A stretch of 64,000 nt of DNA from Alphaproteobacteria bacterium (GCA_965206365.1 CBDBJL010000004.1:141144-205143); one strand, 5' to 3'. Shown: positions 24,529 to 57,729, counted from the first letter of the stretch. Translations and numbers: made by a program. The notes: generated from the sequence alone by a model not told the origin.

Positions 24529-24584
24529 CCCCTTTTATCTCATTCCCAAGAAAAACCCGCTTTTATGCCTAACGAATATTGCTC

Positions 24585-26990
24585 TTAAATATTTTCGCTA
24601 TAATTGCCACGTACCCTCTGTTTCGTCGGGTCAAAATGTGGAAATGGACAAATCGTTGCCGCAAGTTTTTTTTGCTTGCCATCTAACTGACCAACATCAA
24701 TTTCCGTACCGTGATTGGCATATGTAACATCCACCCGCGCCAAAGCAATGACCTTATCTAAGATTGGAGATCGGGTAGCTGACGTAATCTCTCCAACCTG
24801 AGCTTTCCCAACCCGTAAACAACTGCCTGCATCGGGTACCAAATTACCTGCAATATTCAACCCAACCAATTTTTTCTGCGGAGAAGCTTTACGCTTTGTT
24901 AACGCCTCACGGGAAATAAAATCACTCTTTTTAGATTTAAGTGGCACAGTAAAACCAATACCAGCTTCAAATGGATCCGTCTGATCACTAAATTCAGAGC
25001 CAGCAAAAATTAATCCCGCCTCAATTCGCAACATATCTAACGCTTCCAACCCTGCAGGCAACATCCCCAAAGGCTCGCCTTTAGCCCAAATCGCATCAAA
25101 AATTTGAACCGCATCACGCGGATGACAAAATACCTCATAGCCCAATTCGCCCGAATAACCCGTACGACTAACAATACATGCAACCCCTTGTTCATTACCC
25201 AATCGGGCAATAGAAAACCGAAACCAATCCAATTCACTCACATTCGATTGCGTAGATGCGCTCCAAAATAACTCTTGTAAAATATCCCGAGATCTCGGTC
25301 CTTGTACTGCAATATTACATAATTGTTCAGTAGAACATTTTACCCAAACATTCAAATTATGCTTGCTAGCTTGTTGTTGCAACCATAAACCACTATCATC
25401 TGTACCACCAACCCAACGAAAATTATTATCTCCCAACCGAAACACCGTACCATCATCAATCATACCACCATGTTCGTAACAGATCGCACTATAAACTACC
25501 TCGCCCACTGATATTTTCTGCACATCACGCGTGAGACAAAGTTGCATTAATTGCAATGCATCAGGACCTGTAATTTCATATTTACGCAAAGGTGATAAAT
25601 CCATCACGACAGCCTTTTCACGACAAGCCCAATATTCAGCAATTGCACCATGATTTGACATATTATTGGCAAGCCAATAACCATTATATTCACCAAAATT
25701 TTTCGTAAAGCGTGCAAAGCAACTATGAAAAGCACTTTCCTTAGTTTCAATCATTTCTTTCTCCACTGATTTCCGCCAACCAATAGACCGGCTAATCGGG
25801 TTATCTTTACGATAGGTTCGCACCTGAATATCGGTTGGATCCCAACCATTGGCTGGATCAATATCACACGGACAAGCAGTAGAAACACAAACCACATCAC
25901 TCATCGCTTGCAATAACACATAATCTCCGGCTCGTGACCAAGGATCATCCATACCAATCGCCTGACTACTATCCAATAAAGTATTAAAAAAAAAATTAAT
26001 ACTTACCCAGCCTTTGCGAGGTTTAATATCGTAGCGAGCCAATTTTAAATTTATATTATCGGTACAATTAACATGCCCCGGATAACCCATATCTTCATAA
26101 TAACGAGCAGTACAAGCCAAACCAAACGTATCATGTCGCCCACAAGTATCTTGAATAATCTCAATTAATGGTACCTGATGATACGAATAATATTTCGAAT
26201 AGATCCCAGGAGTTGGATACAAAGCTCCCATCAAGCTTCGCGTTGTGGTGGGATCAATTTCACAAACCTCTCCCCGATCCAAACCCGCTTTCGAAAAAGC
26301 CTGAAAATCAGAACATTCGCGCCCTTGCACATCCAAAATTTGAATATAATCACCTGCTGCAACTTCATAAGTCACGGCATTGCCAGGCTGAATATTAACA
26401 TCTATTATTGGATCATAAAGCGGTTCGGGTGGTAGTAACCGATCAGCCTTTTCGCCGGGAGCACTACGTGTAATATAAAGAATAATTTCACTGGCCACAT
26501 TCTGCTGATCAACCGCCATATCATAGGCTGGCACAACAACAATCAGCCAGCATGTCGCCTGAGCATAATATTCTTCCTGAGCTTCAGCGACACTCTGCAT
26601 ATCGAACGCAATCGAGGCACTTAATCCATTCACATCGATTCCGCATTGTTGCAAAACTGTTTTTAATCGCATCGATGCCATATCATTTTTTTGTGCCAAA
26701 ATTTGTTTCAAGCCAATGGCATCCCGACTGTTCTTAGCCCCGATCAACCCAGAATCAACGGTACCATCTTCACCAAAAGCAAGTAATTCGGCAATCTGCG
26801 CCCCATCAGAATTAATCAAAGTTACCTGATCTCCCGCTTCTAATTTTACAGTACGTGAGCAACCCGGCGCAACAACATAACGTTCTACCCCATGGGGTAA
26901 AATCGGCATAGCAGGTGTGAATATTCCATTTTTCACATTATTGTAATATCGAACATCAAACCCATTCATAGTCTCAATCCTTTCACTCAA
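24585..26990 (-). CDS. tdm: trimethylamine N-oxide demethylase-like (DUF1989 N-domain fused to GcvT aminomethyltransferase domain)
   Basis: 801 aa; C-terminal half has the glycine-cleavage T fold (SRTGYSGELGYEV); this domain pair matches Tdm. Confidence 0.75.
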   Translation of the reverse strand: MSERIETMNGFDVRYYNNVKNGIFTPAMPILPHGVERYVVAPGCSRTVKLEAGDQVTLINSDGAQIAELLAFGEDGTVDSGLIGAKNSRDAIGLKQILAQKNDMASMRLKTVLQQCGIDVNGLSASIAFDMQSVAEAQEEYYAQATCWLIVVVPAYDMAVDQQNVASEIILYITRSAPGEKADRLLPPEPLYDPIIDVNIQPGNAVTYEVAAGDYIQILDVQGRECSDFQAFSKAGLDRGEVCEIDPTTTRSLMGALYPTPGIYSKYYSYHQVPLIEIIQDTCGRHDTFGLACTARYYEDMGYPGHVNCTDNINLKLARYDIKPRKGWVSINFFFNTLLDSSQAIGMDDPWSRAGDYVLLQAMSDVVCVSTACPCDIDPANGWDPTDIQVRTYRKDNPISRSIGWRKSVEKEMIETKESAFHSCFARFTKNFGEYNGYWLANNMSNHGAIAEYWACREKAVVMDLSPLRKYEITGPDALQLMQLCLTRDVQKISVGEVVYSAICYEHGGMIDDGTVFRLGDNNFRWVGGTDDSGLWLQQQASKHNLNVWVKCSTEQLCNIAVQGPRSRDILQELFWSASTQSNVSELDWFRFSIARLGNEQGVACIVSRTGYSGELGYEVFCHPRDAVQIFDAIWAKGEPLGMLPAGLEALDMLRIEAGLIFAGSEFSDQTDPFEAGIGFTVPLKSKKSDFISREALTKRKASPQKKLVGLNIAGNLVPDAGSCLRVGKAQVGEITSATRSPILDKVIALARVDVTYANHGTEIDVGQLDGKQKKLAATICPFPHFDPTKQRVRGNYSENI

Positions 26991-28935
26991 TCCCCAATAA
27001 TCGTTTCCGTTTTTCCGACCAAAGCAAAATTAAATGATCCGCCATCAGCCCCATAAAGGCTACACATAATCCCAATACCATCCCTTTTCCGACATCGGTA
27101 GAGGATAGCGCACGTTGCATTTCTTGTCCTAAATCTTGCGTACCAATAAAAGCAGCAATAATCACCATAAAAAGCGAAAATAAAATACATTGATTCAACC
27201 CGACCATAATCGTGGGAATGGCAATTGGCATTTGTACCAATTTTAATTTCTGCCAACCGCTTGCCCCCGACATATCCGCCACTTCTACCATAGTGGTAGG
27301 AACAGTACGCAACCCTTCAATCGTATAGCGCGTCATTGGTGCCATGCCAAACGCCACCACTGCGCCAATGGCTGCAACATCATTAACACCAAATAGCATA
27401 ATAACAGGAATCAAATAAATAAAACTAGGGAAGGTTTGCGCAGTATCGCAAATCAATAAAACAATTTTTGCCCGTTTTTCTTTCCGCGCCGCCCATATTC
27501 CCAAAGGCAAACCCATAATCATCGCCAAAAACACTGCGATACTCACCATATAAGCCGTAATCATTGCCCGATCCCACCAACCAGAGGCGGCAATCGCTGC
27601 GAAAAATAAAAAACAAATAATGGCTGAACGCCTACCTCCAATTAACCAACCAATCCCGCCCAGAAAAAGCAATACTGTCGTGAAAGGTAACCAAAGATAG
27701 AAATTTCGATAAGGTATCAGGACAAATTTGATTAAAAATCCCCGAAGAGCATAAGTGAACGGACCCAGCTGAGTAACAATATAATCCACCACCAGGTCTA
27801 GATCTTTTGAAATCGTGAAACCACTAGTCCGTTTAATTTCATAAGCATAATCCCAAAATTGTGCCAGTATAAATAATATCGCAACACTCAAAACCCAAAT
27901 TACCCAATAAAAATTTCGTTGATGCCATGGCGTACCACGTGCAAAATGAATCGGTTGTTTGTAAGCCCAAGCCTTTGAGCACCGATCCAATACAATCGCA
28001 AGCAACACAATCGTGATCCCAATTTCAATCGAACGCCCAATTTTTAAACTTTGCAACAATTGTAACAATTTATATCCCAAACCTGGCATTCCAATGAAAC
28101 TTGCCAACACCACCATCGCCAAACATTGCATAATCACCTGATTAACACCAATAATCAGTTCAGTTCTTGCACTTGGGATCCAAACATGGCGTAACAACTG
28201 CCATTTATTGGTTCCACACATCCGACCATTTTCAACCAACTCTGCTGGAACTTTTTTCAAACCCAAAATAACCATTCGGATCATGGGTGGGGTGGCAAAA
28301 ATGATCGTAACAATTGCACCGGCTTTCGGCCCCACTCCAATAAATACTACTACCGGAATCATATAAGCAAAATGGGGTAGTGATTGCGCAATATTCAAAA
28401 TTGGATTGAGAATACGTTCAAATTTGTGATTTCTCCAAGCCAAAATACCAACAATCAACCCTAAAAATACACCAAATGGAACCACAACTACAAGCACCGA
28501 TAAGGTTTCCATTGCCAATTTCCATTGCCCTAAAAGAGCAATCCACACAAAAGTACCACCCGATAAAAGCGACAAACGCCAGCCCCTTAATGCGTGACCA
28601 AGGATAAAAAGCGAAGCAGCAACCACTGTCCAGGGAATCTGATCGAACCTTGGCCAGCGATTTTTACCATAAAGCAAATTCGAAACCACATCGATCAACC
28701 ATTCAATCACTGCAGCAAAGTCACGTGTGATATAGACAAGACCCAAATCATCCTTAATAAAGAAAAATAATCCGTTAATCCAATCGGCAAAAGGTAACAC
28801 CATCCAATCTAAAGGGCGTATTAAAAAGTCGGGGAGTATAATCTTAAATATAGCCAACACAACAGCCAAACCAATAACCCCATAAGCAACATTTTGCTGA
28901 TGAGTATTGGATTTTATATCAAATGGTACCTTCAT
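26983..28935 (-). CDS. tmoW: ABC transporter permease with duplicated permease domains (betaine/TMAO type)
   Basis: Two BPD-type permease modules each with an EAA-like loop; 650 aa; overlaps the tdm start. Confidence 0.75.
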   Translation of the reverse strand: MKVPFDIKSNTHQQNVAYGVIGLAVVLAIFKIILPDFLIRPLDWMVLPFADWINGLFFFIKDDLGLVYITRDFAAVIEWLIDVVSNLLYGKNRWPRFDQIPWTVVAASLFILGHALRGWRLSLLSGGTFVWIALLGQWKLAMETLSVLVVVVPFGVFLGLIVGILAWRNHKFERILNPILNIAQSLPHFAYMIPVVVFIGVGPKAGAIVTIIFATPPMIRMVILGLKKVPAELVENGRMCGTNKWQLLRHVWIPSARTELIIGVNQVIMQCLAMVVLASFIGMPGLGYKLLQLLQSLKIGRSIEIGITIVLLAIVLDRCSKAWAYKQPIHFARGTPWHQRNFYWVIWVLSVAILFILAQFWDYAYEIKRTSGFTISKDLDLVVDYIVTQLGPFTYALRGFLIKFVLIPYRNFYLWLPFTTVLLFLGGIGWLIGGRRSAIICFLFFAAIAASGWWDRAMITAYMVSIAVFLAMIMGLPLGIWAARKEKRAKIVLLICDTAQTFPSFIYLIPVIMLFGVNDVAAIGAVVAFGMAPMTRYTIEGLRTVPTTMVEVADMSGASGWQKLKLVQMPIAIPTIMVGLNQCILFSLFMVIIAAFIGTQDLGQEMQRALSSTDVGKGMVLGLCVAFMGLMADHLILLWSEKRKRLLGIE

Positions 28936-28940
28936 AATCT

Positions 28941-29987
28941 TTAACCTAATAAAATATCTAACATTTTTTCCCGCGAAACCGCACCAATAATTTTCTTCTT
29001 ATGATCACAAACTGGGATAATTTCACGGATATCATTCATAAGATCATGAGAAACATTATGAATAGGATCTGTCGCCTTAAATGGAGCTTCCTTATCCGTA
29101 CATTGTAATTTTTTATCTATAAGAGCACCAACAGTTACGATTCGTGCTTGATAAACTTCCTCAGTAAAACGCTTAACATAATCGTTGATCGGGTTCAGTA
29201 ATAGATTGGCTGGCAGGTCAATTTGTTGAATCGCACCATCTTTCATAATCGCAATCCGATCCGCTAGACGCAGTGCCTCATCAAAATCATGCGTAATAAA
29301 AACAATCGTTTTTTTAAGCATCTGTTGCAACCGGATAAATTCATCTTGCATATCACGCCGAATTAAAGGGTCTAAGGCGGAAAAAGGCTCATCTAAAAAC
29401 CAAATATCAGGTTCGATAGCCAATGAACGAGCAATCCCTACCCGCTGTTGTTGTCCACCCGACAACTCCCGCGGAAAATAATTTTCTCTACCCTCAAGCC
29501 CAACCAACTTAACCATCTCAATGGCACGGGCATAGCAATCATGTTTGTCTTGGCCACGCATCTCAAGTGGAAAGGAAACGTTTTCAAGCACATTACGATG
29601 CGGTAACAAAGCAAAATTCTGAAACACCATCCCCATTTTGCTACGCCGCAACTCAATCAGATCCTGTTCACTCAAAGCTCCTAAATCCTGCCCTTCTACC
29701 ATAATCGTACCTGAAGTAATATCAATCAATCGCGATAAACAACGCACCAAAGTTGATTTCCCTGAGCCCGACAAACCCATAATGACTAGAATTTCACCCT
29801 CAAAAATATCTAATGACACATCATGCACTGCAGCAATATAGCCATCATCTTGAATGCTCTGAAAATCAGTATTCGCATCGCATGACTGCATGTATCGGTC
29901 TGGATTTTCACCATAAAGCTTCCAGATACCCCGGCAGTTAATAACTGCTGTTGAGGATTCAGATGATGTTTTAACCATAGCGAGCAC
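28941..29987 (-). CDS. tmoV: ABC transporter ATP-binding protein with C-terminal CBS domains (ProV/OpuAA-like)
   Basis: Walker A GLSGSGKST, signature LSGGQQQRV, Walker B IWFLDEP; CBS pair at the C-terminus. Confidence 0.85.
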   Translation of the reverse strand: MLAMVKTSSESSTAVINCRGIWKLYGENPDRYMQSCDANTDFQSIQDDGYIAAVHDVSLDIFEGEILVIMGLSGSGKSTLVRCLSRLIDITSGTIMVEGQDLGALSEQDLIELRRSKMGMVFQNFALLPHRNVLENVSFPLEMRGQDKHDCYARAIEMVKLVGLEGRENYFPRELSGGQQQRVGIARSLAIEPDIWFLDEPFSALDPLIRRDMQDEFIRLQQMLKKTIVFITHDFDEALRLADRIAIMKDGAIQQIDLPANLLLNPINDYVKRFTEEVYQARIVTVGALIDKKLQCTDKEAPFKATDPIHNVSHDLMNDIREIIPVCDHKKKIIGAVSREKMLDILLG

Positions 29988-30047
29988 CCCTTCATTCTTA
30001 TTTTTCGATGATTAAGGTAATTTTTACTACCAAAATATTATTTTTAT

Positions 30048-30086
30048 ATTAATGCCACCCCACCTTAAAAATGAGGTGGCATTAAT
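30048..30086 (-). terminator. intercistronic stem-loop between tmoX and tmoV (attenuator or partial terminator)
   Basis: 12-bp stem attaatgccacc/ggtggcattaat with 15-nt loop, followed on the minus strand by an A/T-rich run. Confidence 0.35.
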
Positions 30087-30101
30087 GATTAGGTTAAGTT
30101 T

Positions 30102-31079
<978 letters not shown>

Positions 31080-31245
31080 TTAAGGAAACTATATATTTAA
31101 CACCTTAAGTTCCAATGATCCAGTGAATTCAAATTAAAACCACCATACAACAAAACCGTAATACTTAATATATATTCTCCAAGTTAATAATCAGGGTATA
31201 AAACCTTTGATGGTTTATTACCCCATTTCCACAAAACTTGCAATC

Positions 31246-31261
31246 GCAATATTTTGTAAAA
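31246..31261. promoter_or_regulatory. perfect CRP/FNR-type box TGTGA-N6-TCACA upstream of tmoX
   Basis: tgtgaccattgtcaca lies approx. 190 bp upstream of the tmoX start codon. Confidence 0.4.
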
Positions 31262-31286
31262 ATTCTTTAAAAATTTGTGACCATTG

Positions 31287-31886
31287 TCACACATTTTCCA
31301 GATCCTGCATAATTGGCTGATTCGTTGTTGAAGTAACCCAATCAGGACAAAAACTAATTATGACAACATCTTTGGATAAATTCGGATTAAACATATGATT
31401 ATGCCACCAGCTCGCCTGATAAAAAAAACTATCTGTCTGCAACTGCTTTGCCTGACAGCAAAGCGAATATTCCTGAGTATAGGCACTGAAATGAAGCCGA
31501 CAAGCTTGACTCGCCAAAATTTGCCTAGCCCCTACTGATTCAGGCGCGAAAACTGCCGTCAGCTGATCAGAAAATTCATCTATATGCTGATAATAATATT
31601 CACTAAAAAATTTCAAGGCCTTATCGCGTCGTTGCATCAAATCATGTGTATGCCTAACAATATGCCTGAGCTCAGGTAATTTGGAAAAATCATCTGTTTT
31701 ATTTAAAATCGTTATAATATGACCGAGCGATCTGCCTTGAGAAGCCTTATTAGGGTCTAAAGTCACAATTGGCATCATCCCATCGCTCGGTCGTCCATCT
31801 TTTTCACGCACAGATATTTGGCGCACTCGACATTGCCAACGTAAAAACGACTCTTTAAGCCTTTCACCATACACAACATCTTTCAT
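31287..31886 (-). CDS. hypothetical protein within the methylamine operon
   Basis: 199 aa; co-directional and tightly spaced with the mgs genes; no recognised domain. Confidence 0.4.
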   Translation of the reverse strand: MKDVVYGERLKESFLRWQCRVRQISVREKDGRPSDGMMPIVTLDPNKASQGRSLGHIITILNKTDDFSKLPELRHIVRHTHDLMQRRDKALKFFSEYYYQHIDEFSDQLTAVFAPESVGARQILASQACRLHFSAYTQEYSLCCQAKQLQTDSFFYQASWWHNHMFNPNLSKDVVIISFCPDWVTSTTNQPIMQDLENV

Positions 31887-31920
31887 ACATTAAACTCCGT
31901 AACCATGATATCGTAACTGC

Positions 31921-32334
31921 TCAACGCTTAATATAAGCATGACGCAATTTTACCAAAGGATGTTTCTTCGACATCTGAAATTTCACCAACAATTCCCGCG
32001 CAATCATATCACGATCTTGCTGATTATCCGGCAATGAAATTGTATCGGGCACACGCACCCAACCATTAATATTACGGTCAAAAACTGCGGCATTGCCATC
32101 CTCATACCCCATATGAATATCTTCTAGCCAATTTAGATCTACCCAACCCATCACTTCCAAATATTTTTTTAAGAAAGGGGTAAGACAATCATAATCTGGT
32201 ACCAAATTTACATCATAACGATAGCCAATATGTTGGCCAATTTCTTTTTCACGTTCGCTCTCCAAGCCTTCCTTATCTTCCAGGAATTGATCCACACCTT
32301 TCAACTCAGAGCCACGATATTCTTTTCCAGCCAT
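31921..32334 (-). CDS. hypothetical protein within the methylamine operon
   Basis: 137 aa; 16 bp downstream of mgsC. Confidence 0.4.
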   Translation of the reverse strand: MAGKEYRGSELKGVDQFLEDKEGLESEREKEIGQHIGYRYDVNLVPDYDCLTPFLKKYLEVMGWVDLNWLEDIHMGYEDGNAAVFDRNINGWVRVPDTISLPDNQQDRDMIARELLVKFQMSKKHPLVKLRHAYIKR

Positions 32335-32350
32335 TTGTTAATCTCCTCTT

Positions 32351-33718
32351 CTACAGATGATGATAATCTTCGATCCCGACCGTGTGATTTGTTCCTGCCA
32401 AAGGAACTCCTGCAATTGCCGAAGCTTCCATTGTCAGAGCTGCCAAATCTTCTGGTTCTAAGGAATGTAAATTAGTTTTTCCACAAGCACGGGCAAATAG
32501 TTGCGCCTCAATGGTAAGGGTATGCAAGAAATTATAAACCCGTTCGGCCGCTTCATCAGGATTAAGCCGTTTACGAAGTACTGGATCTTGCGTTGCCACA
32601 CCCACCGGACAACGTCCAGTATGGCAATGGTAACAATAGCCCGGTTCTACACCCATTTCTTCTTGAAAATTCGCTTCATCAATATCCTTATTGCAATTAA
32701 GTGCCATCATCATAGAATGCCCAAGTGCAATCGCATCGGCTCCCAACGCAATGGCCTTCGCCACATCGGCACCATTACGAATTCCACCAGCATAGACCAA
32801 ACTAACTTGGCCTCTTTTTCCAAGATCATCAATGGCTTTACGTGCCTGCCTAATTGCAGCCATCCCCGGAACACCCGTATCCTCTGTTGCCAAATGTGGC
32901 CCAGCACCAGTACTGCCTTCCATGCCATCAATATAGATACTATCTGGATCGCATTTCACTGCCATACGAACATCATCGTAAACGCGCGCCGCACCTAATT
33001 TAAGCTGAATAGGAATTTGCCAATCTGTAACTTCGCGAATTTCTTGAATTTTCAATGCTAGATCATCCGGACCCAACCAATCAGGATGCCGAGCCGGAGA
33101 ACGCTGATCGATACCAGCTGGCAAACTCCGCATCTCAGCTACCTGATCCGTAACCTTTTGCCCCATCAAATGGCCACCCAAACCTACTTTGCAACCTTGA
33201 CCGATGAAAAATTCACACCCATCTGCCAACATTAAATGATGTGGGTTAAAACCATACCGCGATTGAATACATTGGTAAAACCATTTTGAACTATACCGTC
33301 TCTCATCAGGAATCATCCCACCTTCACCCGAACAAGTAGCCGTACCAGCCATCGTGGCTCCACGCGCCAAAGCTGTTTTTGCCTCATAGGAAAGTGCCCC
33401 GAAACTCATTCCAGTTACATAAACTGGAATATCTAACTTCAAAGGGTGCTTGGCCCGAGGACCAATAACCGTTTTCGTTTCGCATTTTTCCCGATACCCC
33501 TCAATTACAAACCGAGTAAGTGTGCCGGGTAAAAAGGTTAAATCATCCCAATGCGGTATTTTCTTAAACAACGAAAAGCCCCGCATCCGATAGCGACCCA
33601 ATTCCGCTTTAATATGAATATCATCAATCACATGAGGTGGAAAAACAAAAGAATTTCCCAATCGATTGACATCTCTATTCAAGGTTTTTTTAACTTTGCT
33701 CATATCGTTTCCATCCAT
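32351..33718 (-). CDS. mgsC: N-methylglutamate synthase subunit C (glutamate-synthase FMN-binding domain)
   Basis: GltS FMN-binding TIM-barrel signature (GGTGA, Cys cluster CYHCHTGRCP). Confidence 0.7.
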   Translation of the reverse strand: MDGNDMSKVKKTLNRDVNRLGNSFVFPPHVIDDIHIKAELGRYRMRGFSLFKKIPHWDDLTFLPGTLTRFVIEGYREKCETKTVIGPRAKHPLKLDIPVYVTGMSFGALSYEAKTALARGATMAGTATCSGEGGMIPDERRYSSKWFYQCIQSRYGFNPHHLMLADGCEFFIGQGCKVGLGGHLMGQKVTDQVAEMRSLPAGIDQRSPARHPDWLGPDDLALKIQEIREVTDWQIPIQLKLGAARVYDDVRMAVKCDPDSIYIDGMEGSTGAGPHLATEDTGVPGMAAIRQARKAIDDLGKRGQVSLVYAGGIRNGADVAKAIALGADAIALGHSMMMALNCNKDIDEANFQEEMGVEPGYCYHCHTGRCPVGVATQDPVLRKRLNPDEAAERVYNFLHTLTIEAQLFARACGKTNLHSLEPEDLAALTMEASAIAGVPLAGTNHTVGIEDYHHL

Positions 33719-33719
33719 T

Positions 33720-34589
33720 CTACAAAATTATTTTCTTTTCACTAGGCTCAAGATTATCGTAATTCCACAATTGCCTACCGGCAACAATTTTTGTGAAATG
33801 CTTAACACCCTTACTCGGCAACAAATCATATTGCGTTAATTTACGCTCCAGCCACGCTTGATCCGAACTAGTCAATTCTTCTGGCACTGCATCAACCCCA
33901 CAAGATTTAATTTCACCGCCAACATAAATTGTTCCATCATACATGGAATCACCAAGATTCTTACCCGCATTCCCACATACAACCATTCTACCACGTTGCA
34001 TCATAAAACCCGAAAGTGCCCCAGTATCACCGCCAACGATAATCGTACCACCCTTCATGTCAATACCGGTACGCGAACCAACCGAACCTCTACACACCAG
34101 ATCACCACCACGAATGGCTGCACCAAAAGTAGAACCAGCATTTTTTTCGACCAAAATCGTACCAGACATCATATTTTCACCGCACGACCAACCAACACGA
34201 CCCTTAATGCGCACATTAGGACCATCAATAAGTCCAACACCAAAATAACCTAGCGAACCTTCAAAAGTAAGGTTAAGTCGACTAAGAATCCCCACACCCA
34301 AAGAATGCTTACCACGTGGATTTTTAATGACAATACTTCCATAACCTTGCGACATTAATTCGCGAATTTTGCCATTAACCTTTATGGTTGATAGATCCGT
34401 TGTATCCAATTCAGTGCGTTTATTGTAATCAACATCTGCCGCCCAAGGATAAAGATAATTCTCTTCCTCATCTGGATTAAATTCAATAAACAGCGAGCGA
34501 CCCGTTAATTGTTCGCTCATCATTCCCAACGCTTGAACCCGTTCTTCCTGGCTCATTGCATCAAGTTTAGCATCATTTACGCTTGCCAT
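33720..34589 (-). CDS. mgsB: N-methylglutamate synthase subunit B (GXGXG-motif domain of glutamate synthase)
   Basis: Repeated GxGxG beta-helix motifs (VCRGSVGSRTGIDMKGGTIIVGGDTGA). Confidence 0.7.
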   Translation of the reverse strand: MASVNDAKLDAMSQEERVQALGMMSEQLTGRSLFIEFNPDEEENYLYPWAADVDYNKRTELDTTDLSTIKVNGKIRELMSQGYGSIVIKNPRGKHSLGVGILSRLNLTFEGSLGYFGVGLIDGPNVRIKGRVGWSCGENMMSGTILVEKNAGSTFGAAIRGGDLVCRGSVGSRTGIDMKGGTIIVGGDTGALSGFMMQRGRMVVCGNAGKNLGDSMYDGTIYVGGEIKSCGVDAVPEELTSSDQAWLERKLTQYDLLPSKGVKHFTKIVAGRQLWNYDNLEPSEKKIIL

Positions 34590-35515
34590 ACACGTATCTC
34601 CTCATCATAAGGGTCACAAGTATCAATTTCTTCTGGTAAAATAGCACGAATTGCAACTTCTTCTGATGCCATCGCAACCAAATCGTCACTCTCATATAAC
34701 ACCAAAGGTTTCGCTGCCATACTATCTTTTGCCATGCCTAGCTGATTATGAGTTGCCACCAAATAAGTAAACACCCCATCAATTTCTTCTATCGAGCGAC
34801 GCAAACTATCTTCCAAAGTTTCACCCTGAGACAAGTTGCGGGCCGTATAAACCGCCAATAATTCAGAATCACAATTCGACATAAAACGATGTCCCTCGCG
34901 CTCTAATTCACGACGCTTCAACCAATAATTGGTGACTTGTCCATTGTGAACAATCGCAATATCATTATAAGGAAATGCCCAATAAGGATGCGCCGAACGA
35001 ATATCTACATCCGACTCTGTCGCCATTCTGGTATGACCAATCGCATGAGTCCCTTGGAAATCTTCCAAGCCATAAAGCCCACTTACCACAGCTGCATCAC
35101 CCAAATCTTTAATTAATTCAAGTGCGTTACCAAAAGAAAGAATTTCCACCCCTTCAATTTCCTCAACATGTTTTGCCATCGCATAATTATCACCCTTAAA
35201 GGTTAATAAATAGCGAAGCGCGCAAGAGGTGACGCGTTGCTTAGACTTTACAACCACCTTATGAGTTTTTAGCCGCTCTTCAATTTCTATAATGCGGGCA
35301 TCAATAATATCTTCGATCCCACGCCCTTTCGCAATATCTTCATTTTCTGCAACCTTAATTCGCATGATATATTGGTCGTTAGAACCATCACTACCATAAA
35401 CCGCAAAACCAGTAGAATCTGGCCCGCGATGCTTAAGAGATTGCAACATCGAAGTCATCTGATTCCCAACACCAGAAGCCTTACCGCGATGAATCAACCC
35501 AGCAATTCCACACAT
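34577..35515 (-). CDS. mgsA: N-methylglutamate synthase subunit A (class II glutamine amidotransferase)
   Basis: N-terminal MCGIAG with catalytic Cys at position 2. Confidence 0.7.
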   Translation of the reverse strand: MCGIAGLIHRGKASGVGNQMTSMLQSLKHRGPDSTGFAVYGSDGSNDQYIMRIKVAENEDIAKGRGIEDIIDARIIEIEERLKTHKVVVKSKQRVTSCALRYLLTFKGDNYAMAKHVEEIEGVEILSFGNALELIKDLGDAAVVSGLYGLEDFQGTHAIGHTRMATESDVDIRSAHPYWAFPYNDIAIVHNGQVTNYWLKRRELEREGHRFMSNCDSELLAVYTARNLSQGETLEDSLRRSIEEIDGVFTYLVATHNQLGMAKDSMAAKPLVLYESDDLVAMASEEVAIRAILPEEIDTCDPYDEEIRVWQA

Positions 35516-35567
35516 CCCCCATTACTCCTTTTCCAATTCATTGTTCAAAATTAATTACTCTAAAATC

Positions 35568-37040
35568 TTACGGAAGGCAATTAAGATAAGTATCCACATC
35601 CCATTCAGTAACGGTATGGTTAAATCTTTCCCACTCGTCTGTTTTATATTCATGGAATAAACGATACATATCTCCAGGCATACCCGATTGCACCACCTTA
35701 TCTTTCGCAAGGGCTTCTAATGCTGCCCCTAAAGTCATAGGTAATTTTTGAACTTCCTTACCGGATTCCATCGCCGCATAAATATTACGCTCTTCTGGTT
35801 TACCGCAATCAATCTTATTATCCAATCCATCATCCACCGCCACAAGTATGGTTGTGCCCATCAAATAAGGATTTACCATTGAATCCACCGAACGAAACTC
35901 AAAACGACCCGGTGCAGAAATACGCAGACCTGTCGTTCTATTTTGAAAACCCCAATCTTTAAAGATTGGTGCCCAAAATCCAGTATCCCACAACCGACGA
36001 TAACTATTGACCGTAGAACAACCAATCGCAGTTAAAGCGTCCAAATGCTTTACAATGCCACCAATAGCGTGCTGACCAATAATTCCCGGCATTTGCGGAT
36101 CATCACCCGATGGCATGAAAGTATTTTCACCACCAGAAGAATAAGTGAAAACAGCTTCGTTAGCTGGAAGACCCCCTGATTTATGACCGAGCATTTTAAT
36201 TTTATCTTCACCACCCTTCCATAAGGAAATATTATGGTGACAACCATTAGCGGAAACACCCATAAAGGGTTTCGTCATAAAGCAAGCAATTAAACCAAAT
36301 TCACGCGCAACCTGTGCACAAATTTGCCGATAAGTCGATAATCTATCCGCATTACGCAAACAATCATCATAAGTCCAATTTAATTCTAATTGACCCGGTG
36401 CATCCTCATGATCTCCTTGAATAATATCCAAGCCCATCGCACGAGAATATTTAATTACCTGCATATAAACTTCACGCAAACTTTCAAATTGATCAATATG
36501 GTAGCAATATGGTCGCGAAAATCCACCATTGGGATTGCCATTTTCATCTTGTTTCAGCCACATCATTTCTGGTTCAGTGCCACAGCGTAGATGCATGCCA
36601 TGCTTATCTTGAAACTGCTGATGCAACCGTCGCAAATTACCACGTCCGTCTGATGTTAAAAAAGCGCCAGGATCCTGGCGCTCTTCGCGATTTCTAAATA
36701 AAGTACACCATACACGTGCAACTCGCTTATCCCATGGTAGTTGGCAAAAACTATCTGCCTCTGGAATTCCAACCAGCTCAGCTGCCTCAGGGCCATAACC
36801 AATATATTCATCATGGCGATTTTGAAACAAATTCACCGTAGCCCCATACACTAGTTGAAAACCTTTTTGTGCAATCGATTCCCAATGATCAGCGGGAATA
36901 CCCTTCCCACAAATCCGACCCGTTATCGAAACAAACTGTAAATATAAATATTCAACACCAAGAGAATCAATCTGTTTTCGCACCTGCTTAATCATATCGG
37001 CACGCCCGGGTGCCTCCACAAAACTTTCAATATCCGTCAT
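35568..37040 (-). CDS. gmaS: gamma-glutamylmethylamide synthetase (glutamine-synthetase type III-like)
   Basis: Glutamine-synthetase catalytic-domain signatures; heads the gmaS-mgsABC arrangement. Confidence 0.65.
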   Translation of the reverse strand: MTDIESFVEAPGRADMIKQVRKQIDSLGVEYLYLQFVSITGRICGKGIPADHWESIAQKGFQLVYGATVNLFQNRHDEYIGYGPEAAELVGIPEADSFCQLPWDKRVARVWCTLFRNREERQDPGAFLTSDGRGNLRRLHQQFQDKHGMHLRCGTEPEMMWLKQDENGNPNGGFSRPYCYHIDQFESLREVYMQVIKYSRAMGLDIIQGDHEDAPGQLELNWTYDDCLRNADRLSTYRQICAQVAREFGLIACFMTKPFMGVSANGCHHNISLWKGGEDKIKMLGHKSGGLPANEAVFTYSSGGENTFMPSGDDPQMPGIIGQHAIGGIVKHLDALTAIGCSTVNSYRRLWDTGFWAPIFKDWGFQNRTTGLRISAPGRFEFRSVDSMVNPYLMGTTILVAVDDGLDNKIDCGKPEERNIYAAMESGKEVQKLPMTLGAALEALAKDKVVQSGMPGDMYRLFHEYKTDEWERFNHTVTEWDVDTYLNCLP

Positions 37041-41028: not shown

Positions 41029-41340
41029 CTTTAAGGTGGCAGTGATGTGCGACTATCTGCGAAGTGCTACGATATGGTGCGATGAGGTTGATTCCTGAAT
41101 AGATATTAAACTGCTATAATTACCTATAAATGCTTATAAACAAGGCTTCTAAGCTGTAAGGCTTGGTTTAAGATTATTCATAAACTGCCATAAAACGTGC
41201 TTCAAGTGGCTTATTTTTTTGCTTTTGCAACATGGCAGTCTCGAAATTTAGAAAACTAAAAAAAAACTTTTAAACCCTATATTTTAGGGTTTTGATTTCT
41301 AACATGGCAGTCGAAATCATCTTAAGGTGGCAGTTTAATT
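41029..41340. repeat. cluster of short direct repeats with a CGAAA core (candidate Mu-type transposase-binding sites at the prophage terminus)
   Basis: Exact 13-mer ttaaggtggcagt at 41029 and 41321; exact 12-mer aacatggcagtc at 41229 and 41301, both followed by (t)cgaaat; inverted copy aactgccat at 41183. Confidence 0.4.
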
Positions 41341-53297: not shown

Positions 53298-53487
53298 AAT
53301 ATTCGTTTAAAGCCTCAACCACCAAATCACCAAATGCGTCTTGCAAGGTTTTGCTATTTTCTAAATATTGAATTCGTCCCCAGCCGCGAATATTTAAAGC
53401 CAAATTACCATCAGCATCATAAATATAATTGCCAATTGCGCGATAAAATGGCGGTTTATATAGCGATAATGCGGGGTTTTTCATCAC
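53272..53487 (-). CDS. hypothetical protein
   Basis: 71-aa ORF in the early operon. Confidence 0.3.
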   Translation of the reverse strand: MMKNPALSLYKPPFYRAIGNYIYDADGNLALNIRGWGRIQYLENSKTLQDAFGDLVVEALNEYFERKSNEK

Positions 53488-53864
53488 ACATTCTCTTTTT
53501 TATTACGGGGGAGTGCGCTGGCACCCCCCACAAGTTTTTGGGTGTTACCTGCCAGCGCAGGTTTTCGGGGAAGAAAATTATCAGAATTTTGTATGGTGGC
53601 AGGGCTAGAGGGTACGGAAAAACCAACCCCGCCAGAAACTTTTGGACGCTCAATATCTTTTGGCCATGCTAAATTTTCGGGCCAATTATCCGAAAACCAT
53701 TGAATGATTTTGTTGTAAGAATTTAACGTGATTCCTCGACCTGCTTTTAACCGAATAAAAAAACTTCTATCATTCATGACAATCGCGGCAACACTAGTTT
53801 TACCTATATTGCGGTGCAAACAAAAGAGATTTGCTAAAGTTGTAATATTTTTTGAAGTAATCAT
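53484..53864 (-). CDS. first gene of the leftward early operon (hypothetical)
   Basis: 126 aa; divergent from the repressor gene across a 130-bp control region. Confidence 0.4.
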   Translation of the reverse strand: MITSKNITTLANLFCLHRNIGKTSVAAIVMNDRSFFIRLKAGRGITLNSYNKIIQWFSDNWPENLAWPKDIERPKVSGGVGFSVPSSPATIQNSDNFLPRKPALAGNTQKLVGGASALPRNKKENV

Positions 53865-53952
53865 TCTCTTAATTTATAGGAAAAATCATACGCAGTCAAT
53901 ATGAAATATCCTATATTTTAATTTTTACTTTGTCTTTTTGTAGGATTTACCC

Positions 53953-53985
53953 TATAATGCCAAAAACGCACAATGCGTTTTTGGC
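53953..53985 (+). promoter_or_regulatory. TATAAT -10 element followed directly by a 12-bp-arm perfect palindrome (candidate autoregulatory operator)
   Basis: tataat 53953-53958; gccaaaaacgca-caa-tgcgtttttggc 53959-53985; the ATG of the S24 repressor is at 53995. Confidence 0.5.
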
Positions 53986-53994
53986 AAGAATAAG

Positions 53995-54663
53995 ATGCTA
54001 AAGAATATTTCAGAATTTATTGAAAATAGAATTAAAATTAATGGAACTAATCCGAGAGCACTTTCGCTTGCGGCAGGATTAACGCATTGCGCGGTTCATG
54101 AATTGATAAGTGGCAAAACTAAATCTCCATCATTTAAAAATATGAATTTAATACTAGAAGCTCTTAATTGCCGGTTAGAAATTATCACCCCCGAAAATGA
54201 TAGCATTGCACTTTCTGCGCCGAAAAAACAGATAACACCTTCACGCAATGTTGAATTACGGGGTTTAACCCCCTGCGGCGGTGGCGAATGGTTTGAATTT
54301 GATCATGGTAGAATTCAAGCCAAATGCCCACCAGATTTAGAAGATCCAGATGCTTTTGCCGTTATCACCAAAGGCGAATCATTGCAACCTTTTGGCATTT
54401 GGCCAGGGTTTCTATGTTTTTGTTCGCCAAACACAAAGCCAAATCCTGGCGATATTTGCATGATTGAACGAATCGATGGCTTAACTACGTTAAAAAAATT
54501 TGCTTCCGATGATGGGCTGGTTCAAATTTTTGTGGAATATTCGAATTCAACAGAAAATTACGCAGGTATCACCCAAAAGCTTTTTGAACTAAAAATGGAT
54601 AAAAACATGATTCACCGCCTATCAGTAGTAATGCACATTATTACCCGCCCCGTTTTCAGATAA
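53995..54663 (+). CDS. CI/LexA-like repressor (HTH plus S24 peptidase)
   Basis: N-terminal HTH; S24 catalytic Ser in GESLQP and Lys in TLKKF. Confidence 0.8.
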   Translation: MLKNISEFIENRIKINGTNPRALSLAAGLTHCAVHELISGKTKSPSFKNMNLILEALNCRLEIITPENDSIALSAPKKQITPSRNVELRGLTPCGGGEWFEFDHGRIQAKCPPDLEDPDAFAVITKGESLQPFGIWPGFLCFCSPNTKPNPGDICMIERIDGLTTLKKFASDDGLVQIFVEYSNSTENYAGITQKLFELKMDKNMIHRLSVVMHIITRPVFR

Positions 54664-54756
54664 TGCACTATTTTTTAGGAATCATCTTTCTTGCTTTTAG
54701 GGCTAAAAACCACTATTATTTCAAAAAATTAATTACAATTATAAAGGGAAAAAACT

Positions 54757-54987
54757 ATGCGTATCTTACTAATCATCATATCATTTTTAACGTTAGCAAA
54801 TTTTGCTAATGCGGTAATGTCGTTACCGTTTTCTAATCCATCCAAATTTCTACCAAAAGATGCTTTTGTGTGTTATACACTGGAAAATGCAAAAATTATT
54901 TATGCTGCATCTTCTGGGGGAAAAGAAGATTTAGAAAAATTTGCCGCGCTGTATGTGTCCCCAGAAGATTTTGATTTTTTTGATTAA
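54757..54987 (+). CDS. small secreted protein (moron candidate)
   Basis: Signal peptide MRILLIIISFLTLANFANA. Confidence 0.4.
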   Translation: MRILLIIISFLTLANFANAVMSLPFSNPSKFLPKDAFVCYTLENAKIIYAASSGGKEDLEKFAALYVSPEDFDFFD

Positions 54988-55047
54988 GATGCACCTGCGG
55001 AGATCATTTCCGCAGGAAGGTGAGCATGGAACTTATAGAGATTCAAA

Positions 55048-55575
55048 TTAATCATCTATATCTATATCTTTAAGTTCGCGGGCAAAAATGGCAGCATCTA
55101 TGTCATCAATATAAATTTGGCAAGCGATTGCCATTTTATCAAAAGCTATTTTTTGGGCAACATCACTGGCGATATCAAAACAATTAATAAATATTAAATA
55201 AATATCATCATTTATAAATTGCAAATTTTTCATATTCAAATGCAATTTTTCTAGCATTCCATCCGCCGCCACCAAATCGCTATCCACCATAATTGCCACG
55301 CAATGTGGGTAATAATTATGATACACACAGCTTATCATCATGGCAACATTTGGGTCATCGCCCATATTATACGGTTCGCTAATGGCTACTTCGGATAATA
55401 TAGGAAAAAGCGAGTTATTTTTGCCCTGCACGTTTATCTTTTTTAGCTTTTCTAACCCCAGCAAGCTGTTTTCAATTTTTTGATAAATCAACCTAACAGG
55501 GCCAGATGGTGCGACTTCGCCCCCCTCCCACCGCCGCACGATGCGATCATCTTTTAAACCTAAAAAATCAGCCAT
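55048..55575 (-). CDS. hypothetical protein with N-terminal partial HTH-like segment
   Basis: ADFLGLKDDRIVRRWEGGEVAPSGPVRLIY resembles the recognition-helix half of an XRE HTH; acidic C-terminus. Confidence 0.45.
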   Translation of the reverse strand: MADFLGLKDDRIVRRWEGGEVAPSGPVRLIYQKIENSLLGLEKLKKINVQGKNNSLFPILSEVAISEPYNMGDDPNVAMMISCVYHNYYPHCVAIMVDSDLVAADGMLEKLHLNMKNLQFINDDIYLIFINCFDIASDVAQKIAFDKMAIACQIYIDDIDAAIFARELKDIDIDD

Positions 55576-55654
55576 TTCACGTTGGCTAAACCCTAATGTT
55601 TTGCGTATTTTTTGATAATTTATTTTATTTTTCCTATGGTATCGTTAAAAATAA

Positions 55655-55690
55655 TATCCACTAAAAATAAAGGGGGATGCTACTACCCCC
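55655..55690. terminator. GC hairpin flanked by T/A runs (bidirectional terminator-like)
   Basis: aaagggggatgctactacccccctttttt between the two minus-strand hub genes. Confidence 0.4.
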
Positions 55691-55710
55691 CTTTTTTCGG
55701 ATGATGTAAA

Positions 55711-56640
55711 TTATTCGCGCGCTTCTTCAATAGCTTCTTGCAATTCGGCGTGAATAACGCGCAAAACATGGTTATTTGCCATTAGCGTGTGGATTTCGTC
55801 AAAATCAACGTTTTCGTTGCCAACCTCGCTTTCTTGCACCTCAATCGTAAAAGCATCGGTAATTATTCCGCGTTCAGATAAATCAAAACTTTGATATTTG
55901 CGATGGCTGTTTTCAAGCACAAAATCAATCGGATCAATAATTTGATCTTCTTCTTCTAAATCTTCTTCAATATCTAAATAACCATTTTCTTTATCAATTT
56001 CTACGATAGAATCAAACATCTCACCTACTTTTTGATTAATGAAAAAAACATGATTTTCTTGCAAAAACTTTAATGTTGAACGGGTGATTGATTCGCAATC
56101 AGCTGTAATCAACAGGCGATGCACCCACATGGCATTACCATTGGGAAAGCTGTATATTTTACCATGTTCAAAATTACTTTTGCCAAAGCTATCTTCCGCC
56201 GCTTCGGCTGTGGGGCATTTTTCCCAATCATTGTGCAAAATAACGCTAGATATTTCTATATTTAACTTTTCTGCAATTTCAAGTTTTAAAGCCGAAGCAT
56301 CTTTTTTGGCGAAATCATTGCGCGAACCGTTATAAATTTTACCATCTAAAATGCCTTGTAAAATTTCATTAGCGTCAGCTTTTGATAGTTGCACGCCCAT
56401 TTCAATGGGGAAATCATCATTTTCTTGAAATAGCGAAACCACCTCATCCACAGCGATTGCTTTTTCAGCCAATAATTTGGCTATAAACCAAATTTGTTTA
56501 CCGGTTGCTGGGCAACCCTCGGCAATATCGGAATAATTATTCAAGATATCTTGAATTTGTTTTTGCTCGGTGATGATAATATTTTTTAGAATTTTCATTT
56601 TAAATTTCCTTTTTATGTTAAAAGTGGGCAATTTGCCCAT
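55711..56640 (-). CDS. hypothetical 309-aa protein (hub accessory gene)
   Basis: No recognised domain; acidic; second in-frame Met at 56598; palindrome tgggcaatttgccca (56625-56639) overlaps the 5' end. Confidence 0.45.
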   Translation of the reverse strand: MGKLPTFNIKRKFKMKILKNIIITEQKQIQDILNNYSDIAEGCPATGKQIWFIAKLLAEKAIAVDEVVSLFQENDDFPIEMGVQLSKADANEILQGILDGKIYNGSRNDFAKKDASALKLEIAEKLNIEISSVILHNDWEKCPTAEAAEDSFGKSNFEHGKIYSFPNGNAMWVHRLLITADCESITRSTLKFLQENHVFFINQKVGEMFDSIVEIDKENGYLDIEEDLEEEDQIIDPIDFVLENSHRKYQSFDLSERGIITDAFTIEVQESEVGNENVDFDEIHTLMANNHVLRVIHAELQEAIEEARE

Positions 56641-56673
56641 CAGGTTCAGCTAGATGCCTTGCTGATGATTTTA

Positions 56674-56696
56674 ATATAGGGCATTATGCCCTATAT
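56674..56696. promoter_or_regulatory. 11-bp-arm perfect palindrome containing the ATATAGGG motif (candidate operator)
   Basis: atatagggcat-t-atgccctatat; related TATAGG motifs at 53875-53881, 53908-53916 and 41272-41291. Confidence 0.45.
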
Positions 56697-56755
56697 TGTC
56701 AACAGTAAAATTCAATAAAAATATCTTTTTTCAAAAAAAAGTGCTTTTAGATGAT

Positions 56756-56784
56756 TTGACAAGCCCGCAAGCCATTGCTAGAAT
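56756..56784 (+). promoter_or_regulatory. sigma-70-type promoter TTGACA-17-TAGAAT for the Mor/C-like gene
   Basis: ttgaca 56756-56761, 17-nt spacer, tagaat 56779-56784; predicted start site at or near the ATG (short or no leader). Confidence 0.5.
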
Positions 56785-56790
56785 CAAAAG

Positions 56791-57156
56791 ATGATTCCCC
56801 TATACACAGAAATGGCTAATTTGCTTGGCGAAAATGATGCGCGCCAGATTATTCAACGGTTGGGCGGGAATCGCTTTTATGTGCCGTTTCCAAAAAATCT
56901 AACGCGCAATCATAAATTATCGCAAAAGCTAGGGTTTCACCGTGCCAAGCGATTTTGCAAAGCCTTTGCTGGCGATATTTTAGATATTCCCAAAGCCCCC
57001 GGCATTAGAGCATCGCAATTAGTGGCGGTGTTGGATCGTGCAGGTTACGATTCTGCTGAAATCGCGTGGTTGGCAGGCATGGATCGCAAACATATCTGCC
57101 AAATCTTAGCGATGCCTCAGCGCAAATTTTCAAGTGATTTTTCCCCTAAAATTTGA
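56791..57156 (+). CDS. Mor/C-family late transcription activator
   Basis: IIQRLGGNRFYVPFP matches the Mor-family GG..YIP core. Confidence 0.6.
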   Translation: MIPLYTEMANLLGENDARQIIQRLGGNRFYVPFPKNLTRNHKLSQKLGFHRAKRFCKAFAGDILDIPKAPGIRASQLVAVLDRAGYDSAEIAWLAGMDRKHICQILAMPQRKFSSDFSPKI

Positions 57157-57207
57157 TTCAGATTTTTACCCATAAAATAGCCTAAGACACCCTGTATAAT
57201 TTAAGGC

Positions 57208-57729
57208 ATGATTCCACATGCTGACATCCTTAAAAAGAACCTGCCGGATGGGCAGATTTGGCAGGTCGAAACCGACCCTCTGCTAAGCCATATTATTGCC
57301 AATTTAGGTAGTACATTAGATGCTGCACAAACGCGAATTAATCAGCTAAAATTTGAAATGTCGCCCCTTACAGCGAACGATCTTTTAGCTGATTGGGAAG
57401 CCGATGCTGGCATACCCGATTATTGCTTTCCGCTAGCAAAAACAGATGATGAGCGCGGGTTTGTTTTACGGCGCAAAATTTTAGAACGGCAACCCACCAC
57501 CAAGGCTGGCATTGGGGCTGAACTTGCTAAAATCGATATTGCGCTAAGTGATGCGCGTGGGCAATGCACGGTTACTTTGCCTGCCACAAATAAAATCTAT
57601 GCGCGTTGCGCACGATCGCGTTGCGGCAATGATCGGTTGTTACAATATTCGTCAGGTGAGCATGTAAAATGTTGGTTAAAGCGCATATTACCAGCGCATA
57701 TTTTCATAAAATTTAAGGCAAAAATCTAA
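57208..57729 (+). CDS. hypothetical late protein
   Basis: 173 aa; first gene after the activator. Confidence 0.4.
   Translation: MIPHADILKKNLPDGQIWQVETDPLLSHIIANLGSTLDAAQTRINQLKFEMSPLTANDLLADWEADAGIPDYCFPLAKTDDERGFVLRRKILERQPTTKAGIGAELAKIDIALSDARGQCTVTLPATNKIYARCARSRCGNDRLLQYSSGEHVKCWLKRILPAHIFIKFKAKI

Follow-up and report, generated by a model that had tools for sequence, protein, structure and literature searches.

This article deals with a transposable, Mu-like prophage and with the control region that it carries between 53.4 and 57.2 kb of a 64,000-nucleotide stretch of DNA from an Alphaproteobacteria bacterium (GCA_965206365.1 CBDBJL010000004.1:141144-205143), the whole of which we call the window. 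Our reading, which we hold at a probability of about 0.6, is that the region carries three independent regulatory units and no regulon built on a shared operator. The control region is that of an ordinary, very divergent type of Mu-like prophage, and it holds one notable conserved module: a palindromic promoter, P2, together with the gene of a small XRE-type helix-turn-helix (HTH) protein. An initial annotation of the same DNA had taken the region's perfect palindromes and its TATAGG sites as the joint operators of a single lysogeny switch. Our analysis did not support that claim: the arms of the other long palindrome, P1, lack TATAGG, the half-sites do not recur beyond chance, and P2 is kept in about 20 unrelated loci.

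Palindromes, half-sites and the layout of the prophage

P1 reads TGCCAAAAACGCA-caa-TGCGTTTTTGGCA, and P2 reads AATATAGGGCAT-t-ATGCCCTATATT. They are placed as follows.

53958-53986, no strand: palindrome P1, perfect over 29 bp, from the last -10 base to about +22 of the repressor promoter
56673-56702, minus strand: leftward promoter TTGACA-18-TATATT (promoter scan 11/12), whose spacer and -10 are P2 (56673-56697, conserved core 56675-56695)

P1 lies up against a TATAAT box (53953-53958) ahead of the repressor gene, as had been noticed before us; its first base is the last T of that box, and the arms are 13 bp long, one more than first described. P2, originally given as 56674-56696, is likewise a perfect palindrome, with 12-bp arms at 56673-56697. 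Among perfect palindromes with a spacer of up to 6, the whole 64 kb holds just three whose arms reach 10 bp or more. Two of these, P1 and P2, have arms of 12 bp or longer, against 0.08 expected from dinucleotide shuffles of the 64 kb. For the 3.9-kb region, none of 1000 shuffles produced a pair of palindromes whose arms reach 11 bp.

P2 had been described as an element upstream of the promoter of a Mor/C-like late activator gene (mor). It is instead the spacer and -10 of a divergent, leftward promoter (TTGACA at 56702-56697, TATATT at 56678-56673), and a distance of 58 bp separates it from the Mor -35. The 19-21-bp core of P2 turns up in this same promoter position at about 20 loci of unrelated phages or mobile elements, whose GC content is 51-67%.

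The TATAGG half-sites stood up in part. The sites at 53875-80, 53910-15 and 41276-81 do exist, and two of them belong to a supported 16-bp triple repeat (repeats A, B and C, described below); the stretch at 41272-41292 is terminator-like. The hexamer alone, as TATAGG or CCTATA, is not significant, because 13% of windows of the same size carry some hexamer three times within 130 bp. A search of the window for other copies of the P1 and P2 half-sites found them at chance level only, and CCTATAT is not enriched across the 64 kb (7 observed, 6.7 expected). The TATAGG link between the palindromes is largely -10-box sequence (TATAAT, TATATT), which carries a general caution: a short motif common to regulatory palindromes can be just the -10 box.

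Could P1, P2 and the TATAGG half-sites all be operators of the S24 repressor nonetheless, in one lysogeny switch that takes in the Mor promoter? CCCTATA is common to P2 and the -10 region of the repressor promoter, and CCTATA is locally dense, with 8 of its 20 copies in the window falling in 53803-56804; but beyond CCCTATA, which itself overlaps -10 hexamers, P2 and repeats A, B and C are dissimilar. A prophage must silence mor, and our analysis found no other control of the Mor promoter, which speaks for the repressor acting there. Against this, P2 is unchanged in unrelated high-GC phages, and in the five loci compared protein by protein there is no relative of the repressor (0/5), whereas the small HTH family is present in most. 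The repressor has a single partial relative among 5.8 billion proteins. Taken with the absence of the motif from the arms of P1 and the chance-level half-sites, these points make a single shared switch very improbable in our view.

The reading of three independent units fits into a prophage whose early genes run leftward and late genes rightward, diverging from the control region. On the minus strand, the early genes are, in order, a 126-residue basic protein (PHROG 7669), a ParB-like protein, a 727-residue DDE/Mu transposase and more early genes to about 41351. On the plus strand comes the 222-residue S24 protein and, further right, the Mor-family activator, a gp48-like protein, an M15 endolysin and terminase. 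The transposase has both the DDE domain (rve, E-value 1.2e-13) and the Mu C-terminal domain (Mu-transpos_C, E-value 1.2e-7); by tblastn it matches transposable phages at 21-31% identity only. Gene content, and the hosts of the phages in which homologues occur, point to an alphaproteobacterial source. A megablast of the prophage against 50,697 phage records gave zero DNA matches, searches of genomes and IMG/VR with single proteins for related prophage loci found none, and an Rfam scan of 53300-57400 returned no match.

The lysogeny switch and P1

The switch proper occupies the divergent region between the first early gene and the repressor gene, where P1 also lies.

53484-53864, minus strand: 126-residue basic protein (isoelectric point 10.4), PHROG 7669 (E-value 3.5e-24), first gene of the leftward early operon
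53871-53899, minus strand: candidate early promoter TTGACT-17-TAAATT (promoter scan 9/12)
53875-53890, minus strand: operator-like repeat A, TATGATTTTTCCTATA, overlapping the spacer and -10 of the early promoter
53900-53915, plus strand: operator-like repeat B, TATGAAATATCCTATA, between the two -35 boxes
53930-53958, plus strand: repressor promoter TTGTCT-17-TATAAT (promoter scan 10/12)
53941-53956, plus strand: operator-like repeat C, TAGGATTTACCCTATA, overlapping the spacer and -10 of the repressor promoter
53995-54663, plus strand: 222-residue S24 (LexA/CI-like) repressor with a putative HTH, from Pfam, PHROG and alignment

Repeats A, B and C share a 16-bp consensus, TAkGAwwTwyCCTATA, within the 130-bp divergent region. 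Judged by a best-triple-of-16-mers statistic, their identity is 38/48, a value reached by none of 500 dinucleotide shuffles (mean 31.1, maximum 36) and by none of 979 other real windows (maximum 37). Each copy is an imperfect dyad, and the ideal form, TAGGA-N4-TCCTA, is found with at most one mismatch at these three sites of the window only.

The LexA/CI-like character proposed for the 222-residue protein was borne out for its S24 part. Its match to Peptidase_S24 (PF00717) scores 25 bits over a cut-off of 23.3 (E-value 1.7e-5), and it matches PHROG 4, 'transcriptional repressor', with an E-value of 5e-12. In a MAFFT alignment with LexA and lambda CI, Ser129 (in GESL) falls on S119 of LexA and S149 of CI, Lys167 (in TLKKF) on K156 and K192, and Cys93-Gly94 on the A-G cleavage site, giving a putative Ser129/Lys167 catalytic dyad and a putative cleavage site. 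The N-terminal HTH_26 match (E-value 0.0017, 19 bits) is under its 22-bit cut-off. The likeness to lambda CI and LexA thus takes in the S24 domain, the dyad, the Cys-Gly site and a candidate operator over the repressor's own promoter. The difference is that this repressor is very isolated in sequence and belongs to a transposable phage, not a lambdoid one. Its single partial relative, P0002, is a 123-residue fragment, 85% identical to the linker and S24 part and with an unrelated N-terminus. Either it is what is left of a longer gene, or a related prophage may have exchanged its immunity domain.

We infer that A, B and C are the operators of this S24 repressor, because the triple repeat is significant and because three operator copies are also found in two related Mu-like phages of Alphaproteobacteria, Thiobacimonas phage vB_ThpS-P1 (ThpS-P1) and Rhodobacter phage RC1. 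In both of these phages a PHROG-7669 homologue holds the same position, divergent from the repressor, and between the two genes (L019 2416-2491, L020 1387-1495) each phage has three copies of its own palindromic operator: one uses GGTA-N4-TACC (GGTAnnnnTACC), the other TGTAAATTTGCA. The parallel is one of architecture alone, since a BLASTP comparison of the window repressor with those of ThpS-P1 and RC1 was not significant. Neither the repressor nor the 126-residue protein has close relatives, and a PDB sequence search with the two proteins also found no relative.

On this reading, the S24 repressor would occupy A, B and C, shutting off the early operon from A and exerting negative autoregulation from C, until RecA-stimulated self-cleavage lifted repression. 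Autoregulation of the repressor is suggested by the overlap of site C and of P1 with its promoter. The prophage then resembles Mu, RC1 and ThpS-P1 in several ways. Its repressor gene diverges from an early operon in which a small basic protein comes first, and in which a ParB-like protein and the DDE transposase of Mu type are also encoded. Both promoters are spanned by three operator copies (with repressor occupancy predicted here), and there is a probable late activator of the Mor/C family. There are differences from Mu as well. The repressor is of the HTH and S24 (LexA/CI) type and not of the Mu c type, the first early protein belongs to PHROG 7669 with no Ner-family match, the early and late arms point away from each other on either side of the control region where those of Mu are co-linear, and mor has its own near-consensus promoter. 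The prophage also has one perfect palindrome more, P1, which covers the predicted start of the repressor transcript and which RC1 and ThpS-P1 lack.

By position, the 126-residue protein would be the analogue of Ner/Cro. It has no Pfam match even at E-values up to 10, the Ner family (HTH_35) included, and a single-sequence AlphaFold2 model reached a predicted local distance difference test score (pLDDT) of 46. The -10 of the early promoter ends 6 nt ahead of its ATG at 53864, and the transcript is probably leaderless.

In Mu, the operator region also acts as an enhancer of transposition, and the site of Ner is between the two divergent promoters. By this precedent A, B and C might be bound by the Ner-like 126-residue protein, or act as a Mu-type transposition enhancer, leaving P1 to the S24 repressor; a lone high-affinity palindrome at the repressor's own +1 would suit an autoregulating dimer. 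P1, however, is clear of the early promoter, which means that a repressor bound at P1 alone could not silence the early operon, and nothing between the repressor and early genes of ThpS-P1 and RC1 stands out other than the three repeated palindromes. We regard this arrangement as unlikely, and keep A, B and C with the repressor.

What, then, is P1 for? It is unique in the window, its pattern is absent from IMG/VR, and it has no counterpart in RC1 or ThpS-P1. We suppose that a second factor bound at P1 would silence repressor synthesis in lytic growth. The most likely candidate would be the basic 126-residue protein, the first early product and a Ner/Cro analogue by position; the ParB-like protein or the repressor itself are possible partners.

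A different view of P1 deserves a hearing, and we give it perhaps a one-in-three standing at best: that it works as RNA, either as a 5' stem-loop that stabilizes or gates the repressor mRNA or as a hairpin that keeps leftward transcription of the P2 operon from running on into the early operon. Perfect complementarity over 13 bp is what one would typically expect where pairing itself is selected, more than at a protein site; the RNA fold is strong (-19 kcal/mol, z -5.65), and the hairpin ends 9 nt ahead of the repressor ATG and sits just upstream of the early promoter on the minus strand. An RNA role is nevertheless less well supported than a DNA one, because the predicted start lies within the left arm and there is no U-tract on either strand. 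With TATAAT at 53953-58, transcription would begin at about 53964-66, and a stem of about 6-7 bp would be transcribed; the terminator scan makes no call here. Symmetry that reaches into the -10 box suits an operator that occludes the start site.

Directly 3' of the repressor gene is a 76-residue open reading frame (ORF; 54757-54987, plus strand) with a signal-peptide-like N-terminus and no family match. It may be a moron expressed in lysogeny.

The P2 promoter and its probable HTH partner

P2 forms part of a near-consensus promoter of its own. This promoter is predicted to drive an acidic 295-residue gene, which we refer to as cargo, and the gene of the small XRE-type HTH protein.

56625-56639, no strand: inverted repeat IR2, TGGGCAATTTGCCCA, a second palindrome resembling the core of P2, in the leader (5') of the 295-residue gene
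55711-56598, minus strand: 295-residue cargo protein (isoelectric point 4.45), with AGGA 8-9 nt ahead of its ATG at 56598
55669-55694, minus strand: intrinsic-terminator-like hairpin (10-bp stem, 5 GC pairs, T-run), between the cargo and HTH genes
55048-55644, minus strand: XRE-type HTH regulator with an acidic C-terminal extension, identified by a hidden Markov model (HMM) of the family

The cargo protein matches nothing in Pfam, PHROG or NCBIfam, and its single-sequence AlphaFold2 model (pLDDT 35) is unusable.

Evidence that P2 is more than a promoter comes from its occurrence elsewhere. We scanned 20 specified bases, TATAGGGCAT-N-ATGCCCTATA, against IMG/VR, genomes and metagenome contigs. 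The 20-base core was found in three IMG/VR contigs, two genomes (a Pseudolabrys metagenome-assembled genome, MAG, and a MAG labelled Spirochaetes) and seven metagenome contigs, one of which duplicates an IMG/VR contig; by a rough estimate, chance would give about 0.05, 0.5 and 2 matches in IMG/VR, genomes and metagenomes, respectively. An 18-base core added five further viral contigs. The flanks are unrelated to one another, with 41-67% GC. At nearly all of these loci a TTGnnn -35 stands 0-2 nt from the palindrome, and the terminal TAT(A) of the palindrome opens a -10-like hexamer, usually TATAnT. It is because a promoter spacer is conserved to such a degree that we infer a protein bound to P2. 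A literature search for the P2 sequence gave only irrelevant primer matches.

Which protein might this be? In an all-against-all comparison of ORFs, the small HTH protein was the only family common to the window and most of the first five loci. Its pattern is ...LGxSQxxAAxxLGVxxRTxRRWxxG..P.P..., and HMMs find it downstream, on the promoter strand, in the window and in L001-L005, L010, L011, L025 and L026; in L028 it lies directly beside the palindrome. We then ran the comparison in reverse. Eight HTH homologues from a profile search were picked on protein similarity alone and their contigs fetched, and at all eight the operon is preceded by the palindrome or by a variant of it whose changes are mostly symmetric. 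The exact 19-bp core is upstream in L013 (twice), L014/15 and L016, and the L024 palindrome is two positions off the 20-base core. Variants of the GGGC-N5-GCCC type occur in L017/18, L021 and L022, and L023 has GGGGAT-A-ATCCCC. A -35/-10 frame is recognizable at every reverse-test locus but L023. Several variants alter both arms together, as in L017 (A:T to G:C) or the GGGGAT/ATCCCC of L023.

The cargo between promoter and HTH gene varies from locus to locus, and includes RadC, Amidoligase_2 with GGACT, ASCH, DUF2958, DUF3085 and unknowns. Three loci (L001, L013 and L025/L030) have two palindrome promoters each. At another, L009, two tandem palindromes stand at 773-817, one over the -35 and one in the spacer. 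At L007 (7607-8116) the palindrome promoter drives a hicA/hicB pair, with no HTH gene of the family nearby.

P2 could instead be the site of a host factor, or of a factor from some other mobile element, or be no more than a favoured promoter sequence, its company with the HTH gene incidental. L007, with hicAB, and L031 have no detectable member of the HTH family, and small XRE genes are common in phages. Yet the reverse test came out at 8/8, with two-arm variants of the sort expected of a dimer and a site that co-evolve. The element is also spread across taxa (alphaproteobacterial hosts, the Spirochaetes-labelled MAG and a gammaproteobacterial MAG), which speaks against a single host factor, and the 17-bp spacer of a promoter is normally free of sequence constraint. 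We consider incidental co-occurrence improbable.

All of this brings to mind the anti-CRISPR-associated (Aca) regulators. Every Aca family has a conserved inverted repeat in a core promoter that Aca represses (PMC9410906), and some Aca regulators serve neighbouring operons (PMC13551039). The P2 loci share several of these traits: a strong promoter with a conserved inverted repeat inside the core promoter, often with a second repeat; variable small cargo first and the HTH gene last or nearly last in the operon, with a terminator between them in the window; and a regulator that may serve two operons, given the loci with two palindrome promoters. Most likely, on the evidence of sequence and gene order, P2 is the operator of an Aca-like, autoregulated accessory operon that possibly carries anti-defence genes, a view we favour because core and HTH family recur together in unrelated phages and mobile elements. 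An HTH dimer bound at P2 would occlude RNA polymerase and so hold a strong accessory-gene promoter under autoregulation.

Whether the palindrome and its XRE partner make up a previously undescribed family of Aca-like regulators, present in phages and mobile elements of several phyla, is a more tentative matter, and we would sooner bet against it than for it. The HTH family falls below cut-off in Aca2_YdiL (E-values 0.04-0.17), the only Aca family compared; it is also below the cut-offs of HTH_3, HTH_31 and the MqsA HTH, and reached no curated model. A weak similarity to the C-terminal HTH of MqsA (TIGR03830) points towards MqsA/YiaG (COG2944), and the Joint Genome Institute names several members YiaG. 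These matches are far below the curated cut-offs, however, and the window family lacks the zinc-ribbon domain of MqsA. We take the P2 operator to be unrelated to the MqsA palindrome. Were the new family real, a P2-type promoter would mark cassettes of unknown early or anti-defence genes, the acidic 295-residue protein among them. The DNA motif alone can find accessory cassettes in metagenomes, and the genes between promoter and HTH gene are candidates for anti-defence or early functions.

IR2 adds a further twist. GGGCA-N3-TGCCC occurs in the 64 kb at P2 and IR2 only, against 0.09 expected. In L009, L010, L013, L017, L021 and L022 the main palindrome is followed, 25-50 nt downstream, by a related one of the form GGGC-N5/6-GCCC; most of these read GGGCGAT-N3-GCCC, and their centre is longer than that of IR2. 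Dual control at the DNA and RNA levels has been shown for Aca2. By analogy, IR2 and the GGGCGAT-N3-GCCC elements may be an RNA mimic of the operator, giving control of both kinds here too; a second palindrome of the IR2 type could also be a second operator.

Several findings weigh against the picture of three units and their proteins. The assignments of proteins to A/B/C, P1 and P2 draw on position and co-occurrence. The 16-bp motif was defined from the same three sites that it describes, and there is no recognizable copy of it at the Mor promoter. For the repressor and the 126-residue protein, a database of 5.8 billion proteins holds essentially no relatives. L007 and L031 carry the exact palindrome in promoter position with no HTH gene found by HMM, and L006, where the palindrome stands ahead of an aquaporin gene at low GC and with no -35, is probably a chance match. 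None of the cargo genes is a known Acr or anti-defence protein, a point of difference from Aca operons. In the window itself, a strong terminator parts the cargo from the HTH gene, and the HTH gene lacks a canonical start ahead of its first helices.

These last two features mean that the module may be decaying in the window. The first ATG of the HTH gene, at 55575, cuts the HTH, which extends in frame upstream to 55644; the 23 codons upstream of 55575 encode helices 1-2 (INYQKIRKTLGFSQRE) and include no ATG, GTG or TTG. An ATA at 55623, 8 nt behind an AGGA, is a possible start. An HMM built without the window sequence still matches the window HTH, with an E-value of 1.2e-7, from residue 9 of the stop-to-stop frame. 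Either a non-canonical start or decay would account for the gene as we find it.

The late-activator promoter and the rest of the window

On the far side of P2, reading rightward, lies mor, and at the other end of the early operon lies the left end of the prophage.

56756-56784, plus strand: promoter ahead of the Mor-like gene, TTGACA-17-TAGAAT, extended by TGn (11/12; TTGACA 56756-61, TAGAAT 56779-84)
56791-57156, plus strand: 121-residue probable late activator of the Mor/C family (PHROG 836, E-value 6.6e-14)
41272-41292, both strands: terminator-like hairpin, AAACCCTA / TAGGGTTT, a stem-loop with T-runs that the terminator scan calls on both strands

The TTGACA-17-TAGAAT promoter reported for the Mor-like gene is there as described, with a score of 11/12 and a TGn extension. 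Promoters of at least 11/12 number three in the window, against about two expected, and two of them stand back to back in this intergenic region. That the gene itself is Mor/C-like is suggested by its match to PHROG 836, 'late transcriptional activator'; the Mor model of Pfam gives 21.7 bits, under a cut-off of 24.9. The mor mRNA is probably leaderless, because the -10 stops 6 nt short of the ATG at 56791 and residue 5 is already covered by the PHROG alignment, which begins there. The switch of this very isolated phage now has a testable, if proposed, map: three candidate operators, P1 as a palindrome without a match, a repressor predicted to be cleaved in the SOS response, and a late-activator gene that is probably leaderless.

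Leaderless transcription may be a wider habit of this prophage. In three genes, those of the 126-residue protein (53864-53876), mor (56779-56793) and the gp48-like protein (57193-57210), a -10-like hexamer ends 6-7 nt before the ATG and there is no usable Shine-Dalgarno sequence, which suggests leaderless mRNAs for all three. The gene at 57208 has an extended -10 (TGTATAAT) and no -35, as expected of an activator-dependent late promoter. The heptamer GATGATT occurs three times on the same strand (56664-56670, 56750-56756 and 56790-56796), bracketing P2 and the Mor promoter; two of the copies are AGATGATT, flanking the -35 and the start site.

The hairpin at 41272-41292, which had been counted among the TATAGG-type sites, we rejected as an operator, as a bidirectional, GC-containing stem-loop with T-runs has the make-up of an intrinsic terminator. 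It sits at the end of the early operon and at the left end of the prophage, amid GGCAGT-containing repeats that lie in both orientations between 41031 and 41334 (TTAAGGTGGCAGT twice, AACATGGCAGTC twice, and TAAACTGCCATAA). These repeats are probably transposase-binding sites. The right end of the prophage is outside the window, and for terminal repeats or a target duplication the comparison is confined to the left-end repeats.

Elsewhere in the window, from its left end, phage-tail or gene-transfer-agent-like genes, including a TipJ-family host-specificity protein, and then a type I restriction-modification system (HsdR, HsdM), occupy 1-4456 and 7799-15547. Two ORFs flank an IS200/IS605-type TnpB gene (17320-18489) and match successive stretches of the RecB-like nuclease model TIGR03491: that at 15803-16834 covers positions 4-314 and that at 18446-20854 positions 320-462. 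A nuclease/helicase gene (15803-20854) thus appears to have been split by the TnpB insertion. From 24000 to 37000 there is a block of host genes, among them a trimethylamine N-oxide demethylase, a choline/betaine ABC permease and a glutamine-synthetase-like gene; its GC skew, taken on the plus strand, is strongly negative (-0.22 to -0.31).

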